From an uncultured Anaerolineales bacterium (GTDB lineage Bacteria > Chloroflexota > Anaerolineae > B4-G1 > SLSP01), in assembly GCA_964504195.1 (NCBI GenBank), contig CAZDDI010000010.1, forward strand, positions 22,956-86,955: DNA of 64,000 nt, given 5' to 3'. How positions within the stretch are numbered: the stretch's first letter is position 1; each line of letters starts with the position of its first letter. The notes beneath the pieces are model-generated. The model was not told where the DNA came from, ran no database searches, and was given only the letters and a program-made list of their open reading frames with translations. Shown here in pieces: positions 6,972 to 63,586 of the stretch. The position numbers and the translations under genes are program-made.

Positions 6972-7006
6972 AATGGCGAATGGCGAATGGCGAATGGTGA
7001 ATGGCG
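6972..7006. repeat. Heptanucleotide tandem repeat (AATGGCG)x5 with one variant unit AATGGTG.
   Basis: aatggcgaatggcgaatggcgaatggtgaatggcg lies between the two paralogs. Confidence 0.9.
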
Positions 7007-18836: not shown

Positions 18837-19047
18837 CTATCTCACCTCCTTATGTAATTAACAACCAGCCTGAATTCAGGCTTACAACAGCAAAACGGGC
18901 CTTACTTCGACTACCGAAGTAAGGCCCGGCTCTTTACAGAGGTGCTTTGCCAACAAAGCCCGGTCTTACCTCGGCAGGACATTAAGCGCTGGGGGCGCAC
19001 CTGCTGTCTTCGGCAGACAGACTCAAACCCAATGGGTTAAGATCTAC
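18837..19047 (-). promoter_or_regulatory. Probable L10 (rplJ) leader, a structured autoregulatory 5' UTR.
   Basis: A 210-nt untranslated gap between rplA and rplJ. It holds stable hairpins: ggccttacttcgactaccgaagtaaggccc and ctgtcttcggcagacag with a ttcg tetraloop. Confidence 0.5.
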
Positions 19048-21523: not shown

Positions 21524-21596
21524 CAGGCGAGGCAGGAATCGAACCCGCAACCTACGGTTTTGGAGACCGTTGCTCTGCCAGTTGAGCTACTCGCCT
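21524..21596 (-). tRNA. tRNA-Trp (anticodon CCA).
   Basis: The minus-strand sequence AGGCGAGTAGCTCAACTGGCAGAGCAACGGTCTCCAAAACCGTAGGTTGCGGGTTCGATTCCTGCCTCGCCTG folds as a cloverleaf with anticodon loop CTCCAAA. Confidence 0.85.
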
Positions 21597-21605
21597 GCGT
21601 TATCC

Positions 21606-21773
21606 TTATTTGGTTTCCCGGTGCATCGTGTGCTTACGACAGCGCGGACAATACTTATTTAATTCCATGCGCGAGGGATCGTTACGCCGATTTTTCTCGC
21701 TCGTGTAACTCTGCTCTTTACAGTCGGTGCAGGCCAGGGTAATGGTTAACCGAATCGCCTTTTTCTTTGCCAT
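21606..21773 (-). CDS. rpmG: 50S ribosomal protein L33 (55 aa). It is below the ORF-track length cutoff.
   Basis: Minus-strand translation [55 protein letters not shown], an L33 zinc-ribbon (CxxC...CxxC) signature. Confidence 0.85.
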
Positions 21774-21825
21774 TGGATTGCCTCTTATTTCTTTATCACA
21801 AATTACGAAGGGTGAGCCTTCCTCA

Positions 21826-21898
21826 AGCCCATGCTCGGATTCGAACCGAGGACCCCTTTCTTACCAAGAAAGTGCTCTACCTACTGAGCTACATGGGC
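21826..21898 (-). tRNA. tRNA-Thr (anticodon GGT).
   Basis: GCCCATGTAGCTCAGTAGGTAGAGCACTTTCTTGGTAAGAAAGGGGTCCTCGGTTCGAATCCGAGCATGGGCT. The anticodon loop is TTGGTAA. Confidence 0.85.
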
Positions 21899-21925
21899 GC
21901 ACATCTCACGCTTACATAAAAAAGG

Positions 21926-22007
21926 TGGGCAGAGGCGGATTCGAACCACCGAAGGCTTAGCCAGCTGATTTACAGTCAGCCCCCTTTGGCCGCTTGGGTA
22001 TCTGCCC
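21926..22007 (-). tRNA. tRNA-Tyr (anticodon GTA) with a long variable arm.
   Basis: GGGCAGATACCCAAGCGGCCAAAGGGGGCTGACTGTAAATCAGCTGGCTAAGCCTTCGGTGGTTCGAATCCGCCTCTGCCCA. The anticodon loop is CTGTAAA. The D-arm is similar to E. coli tRNA-Tyr. Confidence 0.8.
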
Positions 22008-22011
22008 AGAA

Positions 22012-22084
22012 AGCCGACGGTGGGAATTGAACCCACAACCCTCCGCTTACAAGGCGGATGCTCCGCCGTTTGAGCTACGTCGGC
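22012..22084 (-). tRNA. tRNA-Thr (anticodon TGT).
   Basis: GCCGACGTAGCTCAAACGGCGGAGCATCCGCCTTGTAAGCGGAGGGTTGTGGGTTCAATTCCCACCGTCGGCT. The anticodon loop is CTTGTAA. Confidence 0.85.
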
Positions 22085-29027: not shown

Positions 29028-29573
29028 ATGAGTACAAAATTTAGGTTTTGCAGTTTAATATGCATTATATTAGCCGTAACCTTAATAATACTTACTACAC
29101 CCAGTGTTAGTAGCGTTATGGCACAAGACCCGCCAACAGATCCACCACCACCAACGGCCATACTGCCAACAGCCATACCACCAACAACCGTGCCGCCGAC
29201 AGAACCGCCCACACCGGTGCCGCCAACAGCCATACCACCGACAGCTGTGCCGCCAACAGCCGTGCCGCCAACAGCCGTACCGCCGACAGCCGTACCGCCG
29301 ACAGCCGTGCCACCGACAGCCGTGCCACCGACAGCCGTGCCACCGACAGCCGTGCCACCAACAGCCGTGCCGACCACGCCAACCGAATCACCACCACCAC
29401 CACCAGCGCCCGCTGAGCCTACTGCGCCGGCAATTGCCCCGCAAGCAGCCGAGAATCATCGCTTACCTCAAACCGGCCTGCTTGAGGGATTCACGGTGAT
29501 TGGATTGGGACTGGCAATTATCATGCTGGCATTTGCGACCATGCGTCGGCATCGCACAAACAGCGAACAGTAA
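29028..29573 (+). CDS. LPXTG-motif cell-wall-anchored Pro/Thr-rich repeat protein, a likely sortase substrate.
   Basis: Signal peptide, a (PTAVP)n linker, then LPQTG followed by a hydrophobic segment and the basic tail RRHRTNSEQ. Confidence 0.8.
   Translation: MSTKFRFCSLICIILAVTLIILTTPSVSSVMAQDPPTDPPPPTAILPTAIPPTTVPPTEPPTPVPPTAIPPTAVPPTAVPPTAVPPTAVPPTAVPPTAVPPTAVPPTAVPPTAVPTTPTESPPPPPAPAEPTAPAIAPQAAENHRLPQTGLLEGFTVIGLGLAIIMLAFATMRRHRTNSEQ
29150..29390. repeat. 15-bp tandem repeat array of about 12 units encoding (PTAVP)n within the LPXTG protein gene.
   Basis: Units such as ccgccgacagccgtg / ccaccgacagccgtg repeat. The protein segment is PTAIPPTAVPPTAVPPTAVPPTAV... Confidence 0.85.
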
Positions 29574-37706: not shown

Positions 37707-37996
37707 GGTGTCGGGCATGTTTGCCCACGCGCAATGAGCCACGCACGATGAAAATCTGACCCGCTTATAATCCGTACTGCGTAAAGCGTAATGCGTAAAG
37801 AAGAATTCTCTCCGTTGGAACATAAGAACGCTTTCAAAGTATACTTCCTGAACGCGAAATAATTTCGCGGCTACATGCCAAACTACCTGCGGTTTGACAC
37901 ACACCCTCACCTGTGTTACCATAATCGCATTCAACAGCTGTCCCTTACAAAGGCTCAAAAACCTTCGCAAGGGTAACGTTTCACGAAAGGCTCATA

Positions 37997-43997: not shown

Positions 43998-45806
43998 TCA
44001 TTCGCGCAACGGTTGCATGATGATATAGTTGAATCCGTTCATAGGGATATGTTCCACAATCCCGTAATGCTGCCCGATGGTCGCCAGCACCGGCCAGGGG
44101 TAGAATTGCGCGCGCATGATGACCAAATCAAATGCCTGCTCGCGGAGCACGCCTTCGATTTCGGTAGTATCCAGCAGGCCGTTGTTGTAAAGGTTGAGCA
44201 GCTGCGTGGGATTGGTGACGACGGGCTTGCCCGCCAGCAGGGTGAACATGGCCTCTTCGCTGAAGACCGGCCCTTCGGCGGCGCGGACGTAGGCCATGAT
44301 GCGCTCCCCGGCCTCGTAATCGGCAGGCGACATCAGATGCCCCACTTGCGTGTAGCCTACCGCGTCATAGTAAGGGTAGTTGGCGTAGGATGATAGCCCC
44401 TGCACGCCCAACGCCCGCGCGACCGGCCCCCACACCGGGCCGTCGGTGGGTAGGTGGAGCATCCGTGTGGATTGCCACATCAACAGCAACGGCACCAGCG
44501 CGGCCAGCGCGAGCGCCCGGCGCGGCGGCTGCTCCGCCGCCCACAGCCGCAGTTTGCCCAGCGCGAATCCCATCAGAATCAGCGCCGCTGCAACGGAGGT
44601 GTTCCAGTACGCCTCGCCCGCACCCCATTTGCCGGACATCAGGCCCGTGCCGATGGCAAAGGCAAACCACAGCGAGTACACGGAAATTTTAGCGAAGTAG
44701 ACTTCGTAAGCTACATATCCGGTCGCCAAGAGCAGGATGACGGTGTGGATTTTGAACCAGGAGCGGGTGAGCGCGATGAGCTGCTGCATATCGTAGGCGT
44801 TGACGTTGGCCGCGATGATATTGGTCCACCAGTGGCCGTTAGTGATGAGGTTGATAGCGCCAAACGAGAGCAGGAACACCGCCGCAAAGCCCAGTCCCAA
44901 CATAATGGCACGTTTGGGGTGGCAGAGGAAAAGGTAGGTGAAAATTGCCAGCGCGGTGAAGATCGCCAGCTGTTTAGTGTAGGCGGCGATGAGCAGCAGC
45001 GCCAGGCCGATGAGAGCGTTACGCCAACCCTTGCGTGTTTCCAGCGCGCCTGCCCCGGCGATACACAGCACCGCGAGCGTCTCGAACAGCACCATCGTCA
45101 TGTGTTGCCGGCTCAGTGGGCCGACGTGGTAGACGAAATTGGAGGCCAGGAAGCCCAGGCCGCTCATCAGCGGGATGTAGCGCCCGCCCACGCGCCGCCG
45201 CACCGCCCAGGCGATAGCAGCGGCGTTGACCAGCGTCGCTATGAACGAAAGGACGCGCCCGGCCAGCAAAGTCTGCCCGAAGATGGGGAACAGTGGGATC
45301 ATCAGCCAGTGAAAGAAGGGCATATAATTGGAGGAGTAAAAGGGGTAGGCGGCGTTATCGAGATACGGCCATTCGCCCCGCGCGAAGAGGATGGCGGCAT
45401 AGAGCTCGAAGCCCTCACCCTGATCATAATCGTAGGGCCAGCGGAAGAGGTCTACGGCGTAGGTGACATAGACGGCAACATAAGCCAGGAACGCCACGAG
45501 CGCGAACGCGGCCAGCACCAGCCCGGCAATGCGTAAGGCGCGTTCCAGCGTATCACGGGGCGTGGGGAGCGCGGATTGCACGCCGGGTGGTAGCGGCGTT
45601 GTCTCCATCGCGGGCCGGTCGCCGCCCCACAGCACCAGCGGAACGCCCGCCAGTGCTACGAGCAGCCCCGCCACGAGCGCGGTCAGCTCCACCGGTCCGA
45701 TGCCACTCCACGCGCCTGCGCCCAGGCGGCCAGCGATGAGAATCAGCGCATCCCCACCCAGACCGAGAATAAGTAAAACCATACCGAGATGTCGTTTGGA
45801 AATCAT
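43998..45806 (-). CDS. Large polytopic membrane protein, possibly a GT-C-like glycosyltransferase or DUF2079-like.
   Basis: More than twelve predicted transmembrane helices. An acidic YDYDQGEGF loop follows the first helices. Confidence 0.45.
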   Translation of the reverse strand: MISKRHLGMVLLILGLGGDALILIAGRLGAGAWSGIGPVELTALVAGLLVALAGVPLVLWGGDRPAMETTPLPPGVQSALPTPRDTLERALRIAGLVLAAFALVAFLAYVAVYVTYAVDLFRWPYDYDQGEGFELYAAILFARGEWPYLDNAAYPFYSSNYMPFFHWLMIPLFPIFGQTLLAGRVLSFIATLVNAAAIAWAVRRRVGGRYIPLMSGLGFLASNFVYHVGPLSRQHMTMVLFETLAVLCIAGAGALETRKGWRNALIGLALLLIAAYTKQLAIFTALAIFTYLFLCHPKRAIMLGLGFAAVFLLSFGAINLITNGHWWTNIIAANVNAYDMQQLIALTRSWFKIHTVILLLATGYVAYEVYFAKISVYSLWFAFAIGTGLMSGKWGAGEAYWNTSVAAALILMGFALGKLRLWAAEQPPRRALALAALVPLLLMWQSTRMLHLPTDGPVWGPVARALGVQGLSSYANYPYYDAVGYTQVGHLMSPADYEAGERIMAYVRAAEGPVFSEEAMFTLLAGKPVVTNPTQLLNLYNNGLLDTTEIEGVLREQAFDLVIMRAQFYPWPVLATIGQHYGIVEHIPMNGFNYIIMQPLRE

Positions 45807-45888: not shown

Positions 45889-46716
45889 TCACGTCAGCAT
45901 CACCAGCACGCCGAAGCGCCCGGTGCGGCCCTGCTCGGCGCGATGGGAGTACCATTCATCGGTACGGGCGGCGGTGTTGATGCCGGAAGCTACGATGTGG
46001 GCGACGCCTGCTGCGGCCAGCTGCGCCGCCGCCGCGCCCGGCAAATCGAGCTGCCACGCACCGTTGGTCTGCTGCGCAACCTGCGCGCCTTGTGGCAGGG
46101 TCGCCAGCACCGCCTGTACTACGTCCACGCCGACTTCGTAATGCTCCGGGCCGATCGCCGGACCGATGCCCGCCCACAAATCTTCCGGGCGCGAGCCGAA
46201 TGCCTCGCCCAACGCCTGCACGGTCGCCGGTACGATGCCCGCCGCCACCCCACGCCAGCCCGCATGCGCCAGGGCCGCGACGTGCCGCGCCCGGTCGTAG
46301 AACAACACCGGTACACAATCGGCGAAGCGCAGGAGCAAGGCTACGCCCGGCTCATCCGTCATCAGTGCATCGCTCTCCGGGATGATCTGCCCGCCATCGG
46401 CACGGGTCACGTGGGTCACGCGCTGCCCATGCACCTGATGCGGGCTGACCACCTGCTCCGGCGTGAGATTCCACAACGCCCGCACCCGGCGCAGGTTCTC
46501 CTGCACCGCTGCGGGCGCATCCCCAACCGTGCCGCCCAAATTGAGCGACGCAAACGGTAATTCGCTCACGCCGCCCAACCGGGTCAACACTACATGCCGG
46601 AACTCCGGTGGGGGTGACGCAAAAGCGTACCCCACCAGAGTCCCGGCTTGAAATCGGTGAATCACTTCTTCCCGAATAGCGCCTTCAGCACCAGCGCGAA
46701 GCAGCCGGCAATCCAC
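45889..46716 (-). CDS. pgeF: YfiH/PgeF-family (DUF152, Cu-oxidase_4) purine nucleoside phosphorylase / polyphenol-oxidase-like protein.
   Basis: HQVHGQRVTHV, ADALMTDEPGVALLLRFADCVPVLFYD and HAGWRGVAAGI match the family's conserved His/Cys/His triad regions. Confidence 0.8.
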   Translation of the reverse strand: MDCRLLRAGAEGAIREEVIHRFQAGTLVGYAFASPPPEFRHVVLTRLGGVSELPFASLNLGGTVGDAPAAVQENLRRVRALWNLTPEQVVSPHQVHGQRVTHVTRADGGQIIPESDALMTDEPGVALLLRFADCVPVLFYDRARHVAALAHAGWRGVAAGIVPATVQALGEAFGSRPEDLWAGIGPAIGPEHYEVGVDVVQAVLATLPQGAQVAQQTNGAWQLDLPGAAAAQLAAAGVAHIVASGINTAARTDEWYSHRAEQGRTGRFGVLVMLT

Positions 46717-47159
46717 GCGGACAGGAAGATACCCGCCAACGCGATCTTCTGCTCGTCCATAATGGGACGCACGGTAGCGCCTTCGGCAGTGACTTCAATG
46801 AAGGCAATCGGACGGGCCATTCCACCGCCGCCACCACCACCGCCCATGACGGGCGCGTCATCATAATCTTCGCAGTCGCAGTCACAATCACAGTCGCATG
46901 CATCCTCGAAGCCTTCGGTATGACAATCGCATTCGCAGTCATCGTCGCAAGTCTCGTCACAATCACAGAAATCGTCGTAATCACAGTCGCAACCGCCCTC
47001 TGCCCCGCTACCAAACCCGACCCCGAACCCATAAGCGATCTCAGCAACCGGGATAATCATGCGGCCTTCGAACATCTGTGGCTCACCGAAGACGTTATCC
47101 ACGTTGAACATTTCGCTCAAATCCGCGAACTCATCTAACATCACCATTACTTCTTCCAT
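46662..47159 (-). CDS. YtfJ/GerW-family (PF09579-like) protein with an inserted Cys/Asp-rich low-complexity segment and a C-terminal transmembrane helix.
   Basis: FGEPQMFEGRMIIPVAEIAYGFGVGFGSGAEGG ... GGGGGGGGMARPIAFIEVTAEGATVRPI resembles YtfJ. The intervening block is CDCDYDDFCDCDETCDDDCECDCHTEGFEDACDCDCDCDCEDYDD. Confidence 0.55.
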   Translation of the reverse strand: MEEVMVMLDEFADLSEMFNVDNVFGEPQMFEGRMIIPVAEIAYGFGVGFGSGAEGGCDCDYDDFCDCDETCDDDCECDCHTEGFEDACDCDCDCDCEDYDDAPVMGGGGGGGGMARPIAFIEVTAEGATVRPIMDEQKIALAGIFLSAWIAGCFALVLKALFGKK

Positions 47160-47202
47160 CTTAGTTCCTCCTTGGGGAAATCGGTAAATCTAAAAATCTC
47201 GT

Positions 47203-47502
47203 TTATCTGCGCGCCAGACGCGCCAGTACGATGACAACAAACGTAGCCGCAGCGACGATGGCGCCCACTGCGGCCATCTGGCTCAGCGCTGCCTGTGTGG
47301 CATCGGGGAGGGCGTGCCAGCGCGCGCCCTCTGGCCCTTGCGCTACTACTGAAACCGGGCGCATTCGCACCTGGCTAAAGTAACCCGTGTCGGGCATTCC
47401 ACCCTGCTGAGACATGACCAACACTGCAGGCAATAACCGAAATTTACCCGCCTCAATCGGTGTGGCGGATACAATGCGGGTACGTTGATCAGATTTGTGC
47501 AT
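47203..47502 (-). CDS. Small (99 aa) hypothetical protein with a C-terminal transmembrane helix. Starts at MHKSDQ; a longer 126-aa ORF is also possible.
   Basis: An RBS CCAGGAGG lies 6 nt upstream of the ATG at 47502. Its leader shares the motif agatttaccgatttc with the leader of the downstream YtfJ-like gene. Confidence 0.5.
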   Translation of the reverse strand: MHKSDQRTRIVSATPIEAGKFRLLPAVLVMSQQGGMPDTGYFSQVRMRPVSVVAQGPEGARWHALPDATQAALSQMAAVGAIVAAATFVVIVLARLARR

Positions 47503-47680
47503 GTGATACCTCCTGGAAAATCGGTAAATCTCAAAACTTATGTAGCCGCGCGTAACCTTGGGCGCGCTAACAAATCTTTTCACTTTGTGTACTTTATTGT
47601 GAAGCCAATCTTAGTAGCCCTTATTATAGACGGCCTGGCTTTAAGAGCAAGCCGCATTTGGATAGCCCCGGCTGGTTTTC

Positions 47681-47781: not shown

Positions 47782-49734
47782 ATGATGCAACATAACCGCG
47801 ATGTATATCTACAAGAAATGCCTTTGGAAGATGCTTGGGCGCGATTGCGCGTGGCGCTGGCTGAGGCCGGACGCGATGCACCGCTGGCGGGGGAGGAAGT
47901 ACTACTGGCTGAGGCGCTCGGTCGCGTGACCGCCGCCCCGGTGTGGGCGTTGCTCTCATCGCCGCACTATCACGCCTGCGCAATGGACGGTTACGCCGTG
48001 CGCGCTGAAGACACGCACGGGGCGAGCGATGCACATCCCGCACGGTTGGCGCTGGAGTCGCAGGCTGCGCCGGTGGATACGGGCGACCCGCTGCCGTCCT
48101 GGGCTGATGCGGTGTTGATGGTGGAGCACGTTCAACAAGCCGGCGAGCACATCCTGCTGCGCGCGCCGGCGGCGCGCTGGCAGCACGTCCGCGCGGTAGG
48201 CGAAGATATCGTCGCAACGGAGCTGCTGTTGCCCGCCAATCACCTGCTGCGCCCGGTGGATTTGGGCGCGGCGGCGGGCGCGGGTCACGCGCAGCTGCTG
48301 GTACGCCGCAAGCCCCGCGTCGCCATCATCCCCACCGGCGACGAGCTCATCCCCCCCGGTCAACCGCCCCAGCCGGGCGAGATTGTGGAGTACAACAGCC
48401 TGATCCTCTCCGCGCAGGTGCGGGCGTGGGGCGGCGAACCGCTCTGCTGGCCCATCGTGCGCGATGACCTGGAAGCGCTGGTGGCAGCGGTAGCCGAAGC
48501 TGCGACCCAAGCCGATCTGGTGCTGGTGAATGCCGGCTCCTCTGCCGGACGCGGCGATTTCACCTCGCGCATCGTCGAGCAGTTGGGGGAGTTGCTCGTG
48601 CATGGCATTAATGTGCGCCCCGGCCACCCGGTCGTCATCGGGATGATAGGGACAGAGCGTGTGCCGCTCATCGGCGTACCGGGCTATCCGGTCTCCGCCA
48701 CGCTCACCGCCGAGCTGTTCGTCGAGCCGCTGCTGCGCCACTGGTTGGGGCTGCCCGCGCCGCAACGGCCCACGCTCGAAGCACACATCACCCGCAAACT
48801 ACTCTCGCCCGCTGGCGATGAGGAGCTGGTGCGTGTGGTGGTGGGGCGGGTAGGCGAACGCACAATTGCCGCGCCGCTCTCGCGGGGCGCGGGCACGCTC
48901 ACCTCGCTGGTGCGCGCCGATGGGCTGGTGCGTATCCCGCGCTTCTTGGAGGGCGTCAACGCAGGCGAACGGGTGACGGTTCACCTGTACCGTGCGCCGT
49001 ATGAGATCGAGCACACGCTGCTAGCTATCGGCAGCCACGATTTGCTGCTCGATCTGCTGGCGCAGACGTTGGCGGAGGGCGCAGATCCGCGCCGCCTGGT
49101 GAGCGCGCACGCGGGCAGCCTGGGCGGACTCACGGCCCTGGCGCGCGGCGAGGCGCATCTGGCCGGTTCGCATTTGCTCGATCCGGAAACCGGCGAGTAT
49201 AACCTATCTTACATCCGCCGGTATCTGCCGGAGACGCCGGTGCGCGTGGTGACGCTCACCCGCCGGGAGCAAGGGTTCATCGTGGCGCCCGGCAACCCGC
49301 AGAGGATTACTGGCCTCGCAGATTTGACCCGCCCGGACGTGGTCTACGTCAACCGGCAACGTGGCGCAGGCACGCGCGTGCTGCTCGATTACGGGCTGGC
49401 GCAAGCTGGCATCACGGCAGAACAGGTGCAAGGCTACACCCGTGAAGAAGTGACGCATCTGGCGGTGGCAGCGGCGGTGGCGACCGGCCTGGCCGATTGT
49501 GGGCTAGGCATTCGCGGCGCGGCGGCGGCGTTAGGGCTGGATTTCGTGCCCTATACCTGGGAGCGTTACGATTTAATTATCCCGCGCGCGTATTGGGAGA
49601 GCAAGCTGCTCGCGCCATTGCGTGATGTACTACATTCGCCGGGCTTCCGGCAGGCGGCTGCGGCGCTGCCCGGCTACGATCCAACGGACATGGGCGACGA
49701 GATTGTTCCGAGACTCAGCAGATCACATATTTAA
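47782..49734 (+). CDS. moeA: Molybdopterin molybdotransferase MoeA fused to a C-terminal periplasmic-binding-protein-like (molybdate/tungstate-binding-type) domain.
   Basis: MoeA N-terminal and MoCF-binding domains (LVLVNAGSSAGRGDFT). About 220 extra C-terminal residues have a PBP-like pattern (LAIGSHDLLLDLL...VVYVNRQRGAGTR...). Confidence 0.7.
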   Translation: MMQHNRDVYLQEMPLEDAWARLRVALAEAGRDAPLAGEEVLLAEALGRVTAAPVWALLSSPHYHACAMDGYAVRAEDTHGASDAHPARLALESQAAPVDTGDPLPSWADAVLMVEHVQQAGEHILLRAPAARWQHVRAVGEDIVATELLLPANHLLRPVDLGAAAGAGHAQLLVRRKPRVAIIPTGDELIPPGQPPQPGEIVEYNSLILSAQVRAWGGEPLCWPIVRDDLEALVAAVAEAATQADLVLVNAGSSAGRGDFTSRIVEQLGELLVHGINVRPGHPVVIGMIGTERVPLIGVPGYPVSATLTAELFVEPLLRHWLGLPAPQRPTLEAHITRKLLSPAGDEELVRVVVGRVGERTIAAPLSRGAGTLTSLVRADGLVRIPRFLEGVNAGERVTVHLYRAPYEIEHTLLAIGSHDLLLDLLAQTLAEGADPRRLVSAHAGSLGGLTALARGEAHLAGSHLLDPETGEYNLSYIRRYLPETPVRVVTLTRREQGFIVAPGNPQRITGLADLTRPDVVYVNRQRGAGTRVLLDYGLAQAGITAEQVQGYTREEVTHLAVAAAVATGLADCGLGIRGAAAALGLDFVPYTWERYDLIIPRAYWESKLLAPLRDVLHSPGFRQAAAALPGYDPTDMGDEIVPRLSRSHI

Positions 49735-49960: not shown

Positions 49961-50803
49961 GTGAAGCGCAAGCATAAGCTCATCCTGATAATTTTTGGAG
50001 CGGTGAATTTACTGTTCTTCTGTGGACTCGGCGGCGCCGCATGGTGGCTAACCCGTTCCCCCACGCCGGCTGTAACGCTGATCGCTATGCAGCCGCTTTC
50101 ATCGGCTACGCCGACCCTCATCTTCCAATGGACGGCGACGCCCACGCTCACACCCTTACCGGAAATCGAAGGCCGGCCCACGCGTACCCCCACACCCACG
50201 CGCACACCGTTTCCTACCCGGATCCCCAATACGGCGACGCCTACACCAACCGTGGTCTCCGAACCTATCCTATTACAGAACGCCAATTTCGATGTACTGA
50301 TGCTTAACAATATTCCTGGCTGGGAATGGGACGCCACAATCAATTACATCCCTGGTCGAGAATATGATCCGGTCACATCTTACGCCGAACCCATGTTTAT
50401 GCCGGCGGACGACCCGATGCGCCGCATTCAAGGGAGCACATTAAAAATCGAGACTGTGCGTTGGCTCAAGTTCCAGACCTGGATCCACCAAACCATCACC
50501 GTGCCTACGGGCAGCCTGGTCACTTTCCAGATCAAGGCGGGTGCTTTTTCCTCCATAGATTCCATCATGGTCAAGGCCGGAGTTGATCCTAACGGCAACG
50601 GGAACTGTGAACGCGCACGCTGGGGGGAGGAGCTATCTATCAATCAGGATAGCGGTGTGGTCACGCTAAGTTCGCCGCGCCTAACAGTAGGGGCAGAAGG
50701 ACGCATCACGGTCTGTTTTTTTGCCGAACCACGCTATCCTGACGTGAACAATGCGGCGTTTTTCGATGTAGCTGAACTGAAAGTTATTCTACCACCGCCC
50801 TGA
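49961..50803 (+). CDS. Membrane-anchored/secreted hypothetical protein with a Pro/Thr-rich linker and a C-terminal beta-sandwich-like domain.
   Basis: N-terminal transmembrane segment, then a TPTPTRTPFPTRIPNTATPTPT linker. Confidence 0.5.
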   Translation: MKRKHKLILIIFGAVNLLFFCGLGGAAWWLTRSPTPAVTLIAMQPLSSATPTLIFQWTATPTLTPLPEIEGRPTRTPTPTRTPFPTRIPNTATPTPTVVSEPILLQNANFDVLMLNNIPGWEWDATINYIPGREYDPVTSYAEPMFMPADDPMRRIQGSTLKIETVRWLKFQTWIHQTITVPTGSLVTFQIKAGAFSSIDSIMVKAGVDPNGNGNCERARWGEELSINQDSGVVTLSSPRLTVGAEGRITVCFFAEPRYPDVNNAAFFDVAELKVILPPP

Positions 50804-62475: not shown

Positions 62476-62669
62476 CGTAATCCTCCTGCGAAAACAAGCG
62501 TAACGCGGAGCGTCTGCTCCGCACACGAACGGCGCATTATGAATTTTAAGAAATCAATCTGTAAATAAGGTTTTGTGTGAAATCGGTCGCTCTAAAAATA
62601 AAATGATCCCCCCTTTCCCCCTGCCCCCTTTCCCCCGCAAGCGAGGGAAAGGGGGGATTTTTTTGTGGG

Positions 62670-62704: not shown

Positions 62705-62935
62705 CCCGTTGTTTTCTCCCCCTCCCCGCACCGCACAGCGGCGTGGGGAGGGGGCCAGGGGGTGGGGTAAAATTCTCAATTCGTAAATTTTTTCATCCAC
62801 ACTGGCTTTGAACGATGAAGATACTATACCATGCCGGGAAGCAAACGGGATGGCCCAGAGGTCACGGTTGCAGTCACATTGAAGGGTATGACCCGCAGGC
62901 TTGCCGCTTGTGACTTGCGGCTTTAGGCTTGAGGC

Positions 62936-63586
62936 TTACAACAGCCCGAGCTCGCGCGCGCGGAGGGCCGCCTGGGTGCGGTCGCGCACATCGAGCTTGG
63001 TGAGGATATTGGTGAGGTGATTCTTTGCCGTGCCTTCGGCGATGAAGAGGGCGGCGGCAATTTCCTTGTTGCTCGCGCCCTGGGCTACCAGCCGTAACAC
63101 ATCCAGCTCGCGGTCGGAAAGCGCCTCGACGGGCGCGGCAGCGCGGGGGGCGTGTTCTGCCAGCCGCGCGAACTCGGCTACCACCTTCGCCGCCACCGAG
63201 GGTTGCAGGAAGGATTCGCCACGCGCGGCGGCCCGCACCGCCTCGAAGAGCTTGGCAGAGCTGGCATCCTTGAGCAGATAGCCCAATGCGCCTGCTCGCA
63301 GCCCCTCGAAGATGTCTTCATCATCATCGAAGGTGGTGAGGACGATGACGCGCGCTTCGGGATGGGCAGCACGCAGGCGGCGGGTCGCCGCCACGCCATC
63401 GAGCACGGGCATCCGCAAATCCATCAGCACCACATCCGGGCGAACAACAGGGCAAAGGCGCAGCGCTTCCTCGCCATGCGCCGCCTCGCCCACCACCTCG
63501 AAATCGGGATGGGTGGCGAGCAGCGTGCGCAGCCCCTCGCGGAACATGGCTTGATCATCTACCAGCAGAATGCGAATTCGGCCCAT
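62936..63586 (-). CDS. NarL/FixJ-family response regulator.
   Basis: ILLVDDQAMFREGL...LSDRELDVLRLVAQGASNKEIAAALFIAEGTAKNHL. Confidence 0.9.
   Translation of the reverse strand: MGRIRILLVDDQAMFREGLRTLLATHPDFEVVGEAAHGEEALRLCPVVRPDVVLMDLRMPVLDGVAATRRLRAAHPEARVIVLTTFDDDEDIFEGLRAGALGYLLKDASSAKLFEAVRAAARGESFLQPSVAAKVVAEFARLAEHAPRAAAPVEALSDRELDVLRLVAQGASNKEIAAALFIAEGTAKNHLTNILTKLDVRDRTQAALRARELGLL

Follow-up and report, generated by a model that had tools for sequence, protein, structure and literature searches.

GerW (YtfJ; COG3874, PF09579) is a widespread family whose function is unknown even in Bacillus, and the forespore protein of B. subtilis is not needed for germination (PMC4366231). A variable region has been noted in YtfJ of sporulating Bacilli (PMC9425974). 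Separately, α-linked (Glu-Cys)nGly peptides made on ribosomes ("synthetic phytochelatins") are described in one report as binding cadmium on cells (PMC4292183). Here, we analyzed a 64,000-nucleotide (nt) stretch of DNA (the window) from an uncultured Anaerolineales bacterium (GenBank assembly GCA_964504195.1, contig CAZDDI010000010.1, positions 22,956 to 86,955 of the forward strand). On its minus strand lie a small gene for a 99-amino acid (aa) protein, a GerW/YtfJ-like gene for a 165-aa protein and pgeF. The locus appears to encode a membrane-anchored pair of GerW paralogues in a conserved operon with pgeF, and the larger paralogue carries a loop rich in Cys, Asp and Glu. An earlier reading of the sequence letters (the original prediction) had pointed to the two small genes.

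The 165-aa protein carries the motifs FGEP (residues 24-27), IIPVAE (35-40), GFGVGFG (44-50), G8 (106-113) and RPIAFIEV (116-123). The Pfam profile PF09579 (Spore_YtfJ) matches it with 32.8 bits (E = 8.4e-8; gathering score 25) in one alignment that runs across the insert and covers profile positions 5-67 of 81. The profile search suggested by the original prediction was thus positive, and its assignment of the protein to the YtfJ/GerW family is borne out. The NCBIfam sporulation equivalog TIGR02874 scores 31.5 bits, far under its cutoff of 116.3, which places the protein, on profile scores, as a GerW/YtfJ relative and not as an equivalog or orthologue of the Bacillus sporulation protein. Among 5.8 billion proteins searched there were 47 homologues, every one with PF09579, and those with a name are all labeled "GerW family protein [Anaerolineae bacterium]". 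Their parts follow the same order: a conserved N-half (MDELKxLLEKIG...VFGKPE...IPVAEIAYGFGxGxG), a variable acidic stretch, poly-Gly, a C-half (RPIAYIEVGPEGxxVxPIMDEQKIALAG) and a hydrophobic helix. AlphaFold2 (AF2) predicts for the window protein helices at residues 2-17 and 20-24, a strand at 28-30, a hairpin formed by strands 33-52 and 104-124, a strand at 127-132 and a C-terminal helix.

Between the two conserved halves lies the loop (residues 57-101). Its 45 residues comprise 13 Cys, 18 Asp and 5 Glu, so that 80% are Cys, Asp or Glu (29% Cys; 23 acidic residues), and they include 2 Tyr and 2 Phe. No residue is rarer than Cys in the window (0.78% in 37 long open reading frames [ORFs]), and the same holds for the family proteins outside the loop; against the window background the enrichment has a binomial P of ∼2e-17. 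Acidic residues and Cys alternate in the runs CDCDCDCDCE (n = 5), CECDCH and CDCD(E), and poly-Gly follows within ∼10 residues. The Cys/Asp/Glu segment announced by the original prediction, and its position between the two conserved halves, are genuine; its length, given there as 46 aa, is 45. In the AF2 model the loop is predicted to be disordered (predicted local distance difference test [pLDDT] < 50 at residues 63-93).

The codons of the loop are synonymously mixed (TGC 7 and TGT 6 for Cys; GAC 9 and GAT 9 for Asp), and Tandem Repeats Finder reports only a weak 6-nt period (4.8 copies, 82% match) in its DNA. A recent microsatellite expansion was ruled out on these two grounds. Since the synonymous codons are scrambled, the repeats are old and have been maintained at the peptide level, not produced by recent slippage. 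A 1.2-kb region is identical base by base in four independent assemblies (Logan, two from the Joint Genome Institute and one from the European Nucleotide Archive [ENA]). The reading frame is unbroken, and both flanks of the insert fit the GerW profile in one frame.

The loop is not an oddity of the window gene, as it had seemed at first: a hypervariable acidic loop is common to the Anaerolineae clade, and half of these loops are Cys-rich. We cut the loops between two conserved anchors from all pooled sequences and obtained 97 distinct loops from Anaerolineae and Thermoflexales. All 97 are acidic, and 50 contain 4-16 Cys. Among the 50 Cys-rich loops, CxC occurs in 48, CC in 45, CxCxCH in 22 (often at the same relative position ahead of poly-Gly) and CxxC in 15. 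Their composition is 22% Cys, 26% Glu, 11% Asp and 4% His, and Cys makes up 0.3% of the family proteins outside the loop. The Glu-rich character is kept in the Cys-poor loops, and the window loop is unusual only in its preference for Asp over Glu. Within the Chloroflexota clade the loops vary in length from 21 to 75 aa and are barely alignable. In distant members, among them the actinobacterial ones, the loop is short (∼20 residues) and lacks Cys.

A scan of one genome per species gave 75 GerW-like loci. About 70 are in metagenome-assembled genomes of Chloroflexota (Anaerolineae, Thermoflexales, Thermoflexia, Caldilineaceae and Dehalococcoidia) and a few are in Streptomyces and Microtetraspora; the closest identity to the window protein is 48%. 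Related loci are designated by L numbers and homologous proteins by P numbers below.

The 99-aa partner has no Pfam or NCBIfam match, and a single-sequence word-index search with it recovered only itself. The best start of its ORF is the ATG at 47502, as the original prediction had it, and the identical protein is called in public assemblies. A ∼100-aa gene occupies the equivalent position in relatives, with products that align well. A profile built from these aligned sequences found 148 relatives, all "hypothetical", from Anaerolineae and without a Pfam domain, and a hidden Markov model (HMM) of the small family run exhaustively against 1.84 billion cluster representatives found only 66 (representatives at 50% identity) at E up to 0.001.

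In an hhalign comparison, the small and GerW-like families aligned along their entire length (93-94% probability, E 2-4e-7), and the alignment gap fell exactly at the position of the loop. When the transmembrane (TM) helix was removed, the C-terminal strand region still aligned (83.5% probability, E 8e-6). HMM cross-matches between the two families were observed in both directions in many loci (1e-4 to 4e-7), and a distant small-family member, P0195, matches PF09579 itself with E = 0.001, under the gathering score. In the AF2 model of the 99-aa protein (pLDDT 92), strands at 5-12 and 16-18 precede a hairpin (21-36/40-56), a strand at 59-64 and a C-terminal helix. The order of strands and helices is the same in both models, the large protein having an extra N-terminal helix; the small one has a tight turn at the hairpin tip, and the loop takes the place of this turn in the large one. 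By these profile and model comparisons the 99-aa partner is a divergent GerW paralogue, a mini-GerW. The pairing with a small membrane protein that had been predicted is supported; the GerW paralogy of the partner had been overlooked. Neither model resembles a solved structure, and Foldseek gave no PDB match at E < 0.001. The two proteins are oppositely charged (isoelectric point [pI] 11.5 for the 99-aa and 4.05 for the 165-aa protein). The mini-GerW family has a nearly invariant I-P-N-x-T just ahead of the TM helix, where the GerW-like family has IMDEQK; residues 65-69 of the window protein read LPDAT, with Asp in place of Asn.

Both proteins lack a signal peptide and have a single C-terminal TM helix, the arrangement of a tail-anchored protein. 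In the AF2 models the helices span residues 136-163 of 165 and 68-98 of 99. The most hydrophobic 19-residue window of the family has a mean Kyte-Doolittle value of 2.1, and in both families it ends 6-9 residues before the C-terminus. Helix prediction and hydrophobicity agree with the original prediction on the C-terminal TM helix of the 165-aa protein. That an anchored GerW protein outside the Firmicutes is unusual did not hold up: the same architecture occurs in ∼70 Chloroflexota genomes, Streptomyces and Microtetraspora, and the distant members, actinobacterial ones included, likewise finish with a hydrophobic helix and a basic tail.

In HMM scans of the fetched loci, 58 distinct loci have the small gene directly upstream of the GerW-like one, and in about 50 (species-level genomes) pgeF follows directly downstream. 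A deeper subgroup retains the small/GerW-like pair without pgeF. In the window, the GTG start of pgeF at 46665 overlaps the stop codon of the GerW-like gene (GTGA), and ATGA or GTGA overlaps are found at this junction in L005, L006 and L008. The N-terminus of the window PgeF (VIHRFQAG..LVGYAF) resembles that of L005 (VIHRWQQG..LVGYAF), and the junction is GTGA in both. No terminator-like site was found between the operon genes. Gene order and junctions indicate that the small gene, the GerW-like gene and pgeF form a conserved operon in Anaerolineae and Thermoflexales. The earlier reading of the locus had recognized the pair and had overlooked the translationally coupled third gene.

Public calls of pgeF start 25 codons later (233 aa vs. 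258 aa from the GTG at 46665); judged by the overlap sequences, the annotated start is probably wrong and the called protein too short. One public homologue, P0043 (ENA contig, 205 aa), does not end after the anchor helix but goes on into an N-terminus like that of PgeF (…LVWYAFTGPGSAFRHACFTRLGGAS). It is most likely a frameshift or a read-through across the overlapping stop/start junction, and it is an independent confirmation of the adjacency of GerW and pgeF.

From an anatomy and evolution of the locus that are well supported, we infer a function. In the predicted fold, each of the two small proteins consists of a short strand, a very long β-hairpin, a short strand and a C-terminal hydrophobic helix. 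The most probable arrangement of both is a tail anchor in the cytoplasmic membrane and a β-domain on the cytoplasmic side. Because the paralogues are always adjacent and of opposite charge, they probably assemble as a hetero-oligomer. The large subunit would then display, at its hairpin tip, a disordered and highly acidic loop with a poly-Gly closure: a ribosomal (Asp/Glu-Cys)n peptide acting as an α-linked phytochelatin analogue or a metallothionein-like module. The (Glu-Cys)nGly-like composition and the metallothionein-like CxC/CC/His grammar make the binding of thiophilic metals the most likely role. By analogy with such peptides, metal binding is chemically plausible, and the loop would most likely sequester or buffer thiophilic ions (Zn2+, Cu+, Cd2+ or similar) as thiolate/carboxylate clusters on the membrane surface. 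In sister lineages, the acidic loops without Cys would be limited to binding hard cations or to the role of an acidic spacer. We tentatively propose, at somewhat less than even confidence, that the locus encodes a tail-anchored GerW-fold pair in which the metallothionein/phytochelatin-like loop of the large subunit binds metal at the membrane. It is possible, if rather doubtful, that the locus provides a membrane-tethered, encoded phytochelatin/metallothionein analogue on a two-subunit GerW scaffold, with a hypervariable loop whose Cys load is tuned by lineage to the metal regime and a scaffold that works together with PgeF, the editor of peptidoglycan precursors.

Several observations weigh against metal binding by a cytoplasmic loop. 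(i) No Pfam metallothionein family matches the protein or three isolated loops (E up to 10), searches of PDB sequences gave no match, and across the seven distinct loci for which called genes were listed no metal-homeostasis gene is a constant neighbor. (ii) The AF2 model of the 165-aa protein is of only moderate quality (pLDDT 73.7; predicted template modeling score 0.40). (iii) In a neighbor-joining tree built on the conserved parts only, Cys-rich loops occur in at least three branches and are interleaved with Cys-free ones, and P0035 and P0042, 94% identical outside the loop, have 4 vs. 1 Cys. The Cys load is thus recurrent but labile, turning over quickly; gain and loss between near-identical proteins implies, from the sequences, that the Cys residues are dispensable for the core function. 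(iv) In both families the C-terminal tails have ∼2.3-2.5 Lys/Arg and almost no Asp or Glu, and the 15-residue stretch ahead of the helix has a net negative charge, a distribution for which the positive-inside rule favors the opposite topology, with the loop outside.

The lability of the Cys load is what would be expected if the loop were a neutral, fast-evolving, disordered acidic spacer at the known variable site of GerW, its Cys arising by lineage-specific, low-complexity (GAY/GAR-TGY)n drift and not for a role with metals. A variable YtfJ region is already known in Bacilli (PMC9425974), and the spread of loop lengths, the poor alignability, the predicted disorder and the Cys-free acidic loops of many sister lineages all fit such a spacer. 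The Cys content does not: it reaches 22-29% in the loops against 0.78% in the window and 0.3% in the rest of the family, and three branches or more show the enrichment, with a shared CxC/CC/CxCxCH grammar plus His. The scrambled codons mark the repeats as old and peptide-maintained, and in a neutral spacer thirteen free thiols would be a liability. We regard a neutral spacer as unlikely.

A second alternative accepts the anchor and reverses its direction. With the N-domain outside, the loop would be a surface module for metal or mineral capture or for disulfides, the natural counterpart of engineered surface-displayed (Glu-Cys)n peptides. Besides the basic tails and the net-negative flank before the helix in both families, the N-domain of the large protein (only ∼4 basic vs. 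>35 acidic residues) would suit export of an N-tail driven by the proton motive force (pmf). Acidic N-tails, e.g., that of ProW, undergo such pmf-driven export. Surface-displayed peptides of this kind (EC8-EC20) are reported to bind Cd (PMC4292183). Export of the large N-domain would nevertheless be hard: no signal peptide is present, and because the TM helix is synthesized last, a folded β-domain of 75-135 aa would have to cross the membrane post-translationally, for which no bacterial pathway is known. The N-domain of the small paralogue is basic (8 Lys/Arg in 75 aa), a composition unfavorable to export, Bacillus GerW is intracellular and soluble (PMC4366231), and PgeF (YfiH), the product of the coupled third gene, is cytoplasmic (PMC8844914). 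On these grounds the N-in, tail-anchored arrangement is clearly favored over N-out, and a surface-exposed loop is quite improbable.

The high Cys density and the conserved His could also belong to a module of redox or sulfur chemistry that modulates the GerW pair or PgeF, be it as an Fe-S cluster site, a carrier of persulfide or polysulfide, or a redox buffer or sensor based on thiols. Many Anaerolineae are anaerobes of sulfidic or digester habitats. PgeF itself uses a catalytic cysteine, for in E. coli catalysis needs Cys107 and the C107A mutant is catalytically inactive (PMC8844914). The grammar of the loops speaks for another chemistry: CxC and CC with flanking carboxylates are typical of metallothionein clusters and not of canonical Fe-S sites, and CxxC is present in only 15 of the 50 Cys-rich loops. 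A Cys number that varies from 4 to 16 and is rapidly lost does not suit a defined cofactor site, and no Fe-S assembly or sulfur-transfer gene is consistently adjacent in the loci with listed genes. A redox or sulfur module is therefore very improbable.

An artefactual origin of the insert, from a low-complexity repeat that was misassembled or, as the original prediction had allowed for, frameshifted, can be dismissed with near certainty: low-complexity DNA is prone to error and P0043 is evidently a frameshift fusion with pgeF, but a single continuous frame joins both GerW halves, four independent assemblies agree in sequence, and dozens of homologues from other species carry analogous in-frame loops.

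The coordinates of the features are collected in Table 1.

Table 1. Positions of the features at the locus and of short tandem repeats (window coordinates unless a locus is named)
Feature	Position	Strand	Basis
pgeF/yfiH (Cu-oxidase_4, PF02578), third gene of the operon	45889..46665	-	Pfam, E=1e-76
GerW/YtfJ-like acidic protein, 165 aa, pI 4.05	46662..47159	-	Pfam PF09579
Predicted C-terminal TM (tail-anchor) helix, about aa 139-161, then tail GKK	46677..46745	-	AF2 and hydrophobicity
Poly-Gly run, aa 106-113, closing the loop, conserved family-wide	46821..46844	-	
Loop rich in Cys, Asp and Glu (CDCDYDDFCDCDETCDDDCECDCHTEGFEDACDCDCDCDCEDYDD, aa 57-101), tip of the long β-hairpin	46857..46991	-	
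Leader repeat copy 2 (TTTTTAGATTTACCGATTTCCC), ahead of AAGGAGG in the 43 nt that separate the small and GerW-like genes	47175..47196	-	
Small basic tail-anchored protein, 99 aa, pI 11.5, mini-GerW paralogue	47203..47502	-	Profile comparison and AF2
Leader repeat copy 1 (TTTTGAGATTTACCGATTTTCC) directly 5′ of the AGGAGG Shine-Dalgarno sequence of the small gene	47515..47536	-	
Promoter-like TTGCTC-16 nt-TATAAT 5′ of the small gene (putative)	47623..47650	-	Read from the sequence
Short tandem repeats, window	6972-7006, 29267-29307, 37779-37800, 62609-62636, 62897-62937		
Short tandem repeats, relatives	L006 3820-3934; L023 2926-2989; L065 1399-1438 and 1495-1527		

The candidate promoter has its TATAAT box at 47623-47628, and a similar GGnTATAATA box resembling a -10 element lies upstream of the small gene in L005, L006, L008 and L011. 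A consensus promoter scan did not report TTGCTC/TATAAT, because the -35 hexamer fits at only 3 of 6 positions.

The original prediction had also noted a near-identical leader on both small genes. It is real in the window: AGATTTACCGATTTYCC occurs exactly twice in the 64 kb (47175-47191 and 47515-47531, both on the minus strand) where 0.16 copies are expected, and the two leader copies share 20 of 22 core positions (TTTTNAGATTTACCGATTTYCC) directly before AGGAGG. In copy 1 an 8-nt unit of the GATTTNCC type is tandemly repeated. A further stretch similar to the motif, GATTCACCGATTTC at about 46650-46663, was set aside as N-terminal coding sequence of pgeF (VIHRF, conserved in L005) and not a leader. 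The leader region matches no Rfam family, and the 5′ untranslated region folds no better than shuffled sequences (z = 0.31). The window motif is absent from the leaders of relatives, where most loci show no similarity between the leaders of their two GerW-type genes. A scan of metagenome contigs for the motif plus Shine-Dalgarno pattern found nothing, the bare 17-mer gave only scattered single matches in the metagenome collection (in which the window contig is apparently not included), and a scan of viral contigs was negative.

In a few lineages the two leaders do match, but with a sequence other than that of the window: L006, L041 and L043 carry AACTCTT/AACTCGC units, L065 carries heptamers and L034 an 11-mer, none of which recurs in the remainder of its own 3-8-kb locus. 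With no Rfam match, no significant fold and no counterpart in relatives, a conserved regulatory element or structured RNA was rejected, and with it the notion of a conserved co-regulatory signal: most relatives have no shared leader, and the others have lineage-specific 7-8-nt repeats. Co-regulation is more simply explained by the genes being in one operon. In our reading, the shared leader is a repeat element particular to the lineage and placed at each of the two translation-initiation regions, where it may contribute to matched translation of the subunits. Many intergenic regions in the window and in related Anaerolineae are occupied by tandem repeats of 7-8 nt in 3-16 copies, the unit varying by site, and in several lineages one repeat unit precedes the Shine-Dalgarno sequence of both GerW-type genes. 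Such repeats resemble the heptamer short tandemly repeated repetitive (STRR) sequences of cyanobacteria.

Beyond the operon, a divergent gene (47782-49734, plus strand) encodes a 650-aa MoeA-PBP fusion, in which Pfam recognizes the molybdopterin molybdenumtransferase MoeA (MoeA_N, MoCF_biosynth and MoeA_C) followed by a C-terminal PBP_like solute-binding domain. This neighbor is present in only 3 of the 7 distinct loci with listed genes (the window, L005 and L011) and not in L006, L008 or L009. Directly downstream of pgeF lies a gene for a 602-aa multi-pass membrane protein (43998-45806, minus strand) without a Pfam match; its position is not conserved, and relatives have a convergent DnaJ/DUF4352 gene instead. 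An ORF at 49961-50803 (plus strand, 280 aa) has an N-terminal hydrophobic segment and a Pro/Thr-rich linker (…TPTRTPTPTRTPFPTRIPNTATPTPT…). Two ordinary features without relation to the finding are an L10 ribosomal-protein leader (18881-19031, minus strand; Rfam RF00557, 54 bits) and four clustered tRNA genes (21524-22084, minus strand). The 165-aa protein was also considered as the precursor of a ribosomally synthesized and post-translationally modified peptide of the radical S-adenosylmethionine (ranthipeptide/SCIFF-like) type; this was rejected, as no maturase-type gene is adjacent in the seven loci and the repeats lie inside a folded protein.

A literature search found no paper on Cys-rich GerW loops, the mini-paralogue or the linkage to pgeF. 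For a family without an assigned role, the Chloroflexota locus offers a concrete context, a membrane-anchored GerW paralogue pair in an operon with the cell-wall precursor editor PgeF. Should the loops bind metal, they would represent a new bacterial metallothionein type, could supply compact metal-binding modules displayed on a scaffold, and might serve as a genomic marker of metal or sulfide exposure in the abundant Anaerolineae of wastewater and sediment. If the pair is a metal scaffold that works with PgeF, this would be the first biochemical role of the GerW/YtfJ fold outside spores. If no metal is bound, the extreme and recurrent enrichment of Cys in a disordered loop still needs an explanation.

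How the locus compares with described systems depends on the part considered. Both conserved halves are common to the Bacillus GerW family and the window protein, and in Bacilli, too, a variable region separates them (PMC9425974). The Bacillus protein is soluble and forespore-specific (PMC4366231), whereas the window protein has a C-terminal anchor and a 45-aa Cys/Asp loop and comes from a lineage not known to sporulate; its mini-paralogue and pgeF context are not described for Bacillus.

Proteins of the ElaB/YqjD type are bacterial C-tail-anchored membrane proteins. The window pair is like them in having no signal peptide, a single helix within the last 30 residues and a short basic tail; it has no sequence relationship to them, and its topology is a predicted one.

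With metallothioneins (SmtA/BmtA, MymT), the window loop has in common 29% Cys, dominant CxC and CC with accompanying His, few hydrophobic residues and no fold predicted without metal. It differs in having no sequence match to any such family or solved structure, in being grafted into a membrane-anchored scaffold instead of forming a free small protein, in being far more acidic, and in a Cys number and order that are not conserved. By composition, then, the loop may be called metallothionein- or phytochelatin-like, and it belongs to no described metallothionein family.

Natural phytochelatins are described as γ-linked and made enzymatically from glutathione (PMC4292183), whereas the window loop is encoded in frame; its runs are short (n up to 5) and interrupted, and prefer Asp over Glu (18 vs. 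5). The closer likeness is to the synthetic EC8-EC20 peptides. The runs of the window and its family share with them the alternation of acidic residues and Cys followed by Gly, as in L005, where ECECECEC stands before poly-Gly, and the family loops are likewise ribosomally made and α-linked. The Cys/acid loops of these Anaerolineae would be natural versions of the (Glu-Cys)n peptides that engineers have built for metal capture.

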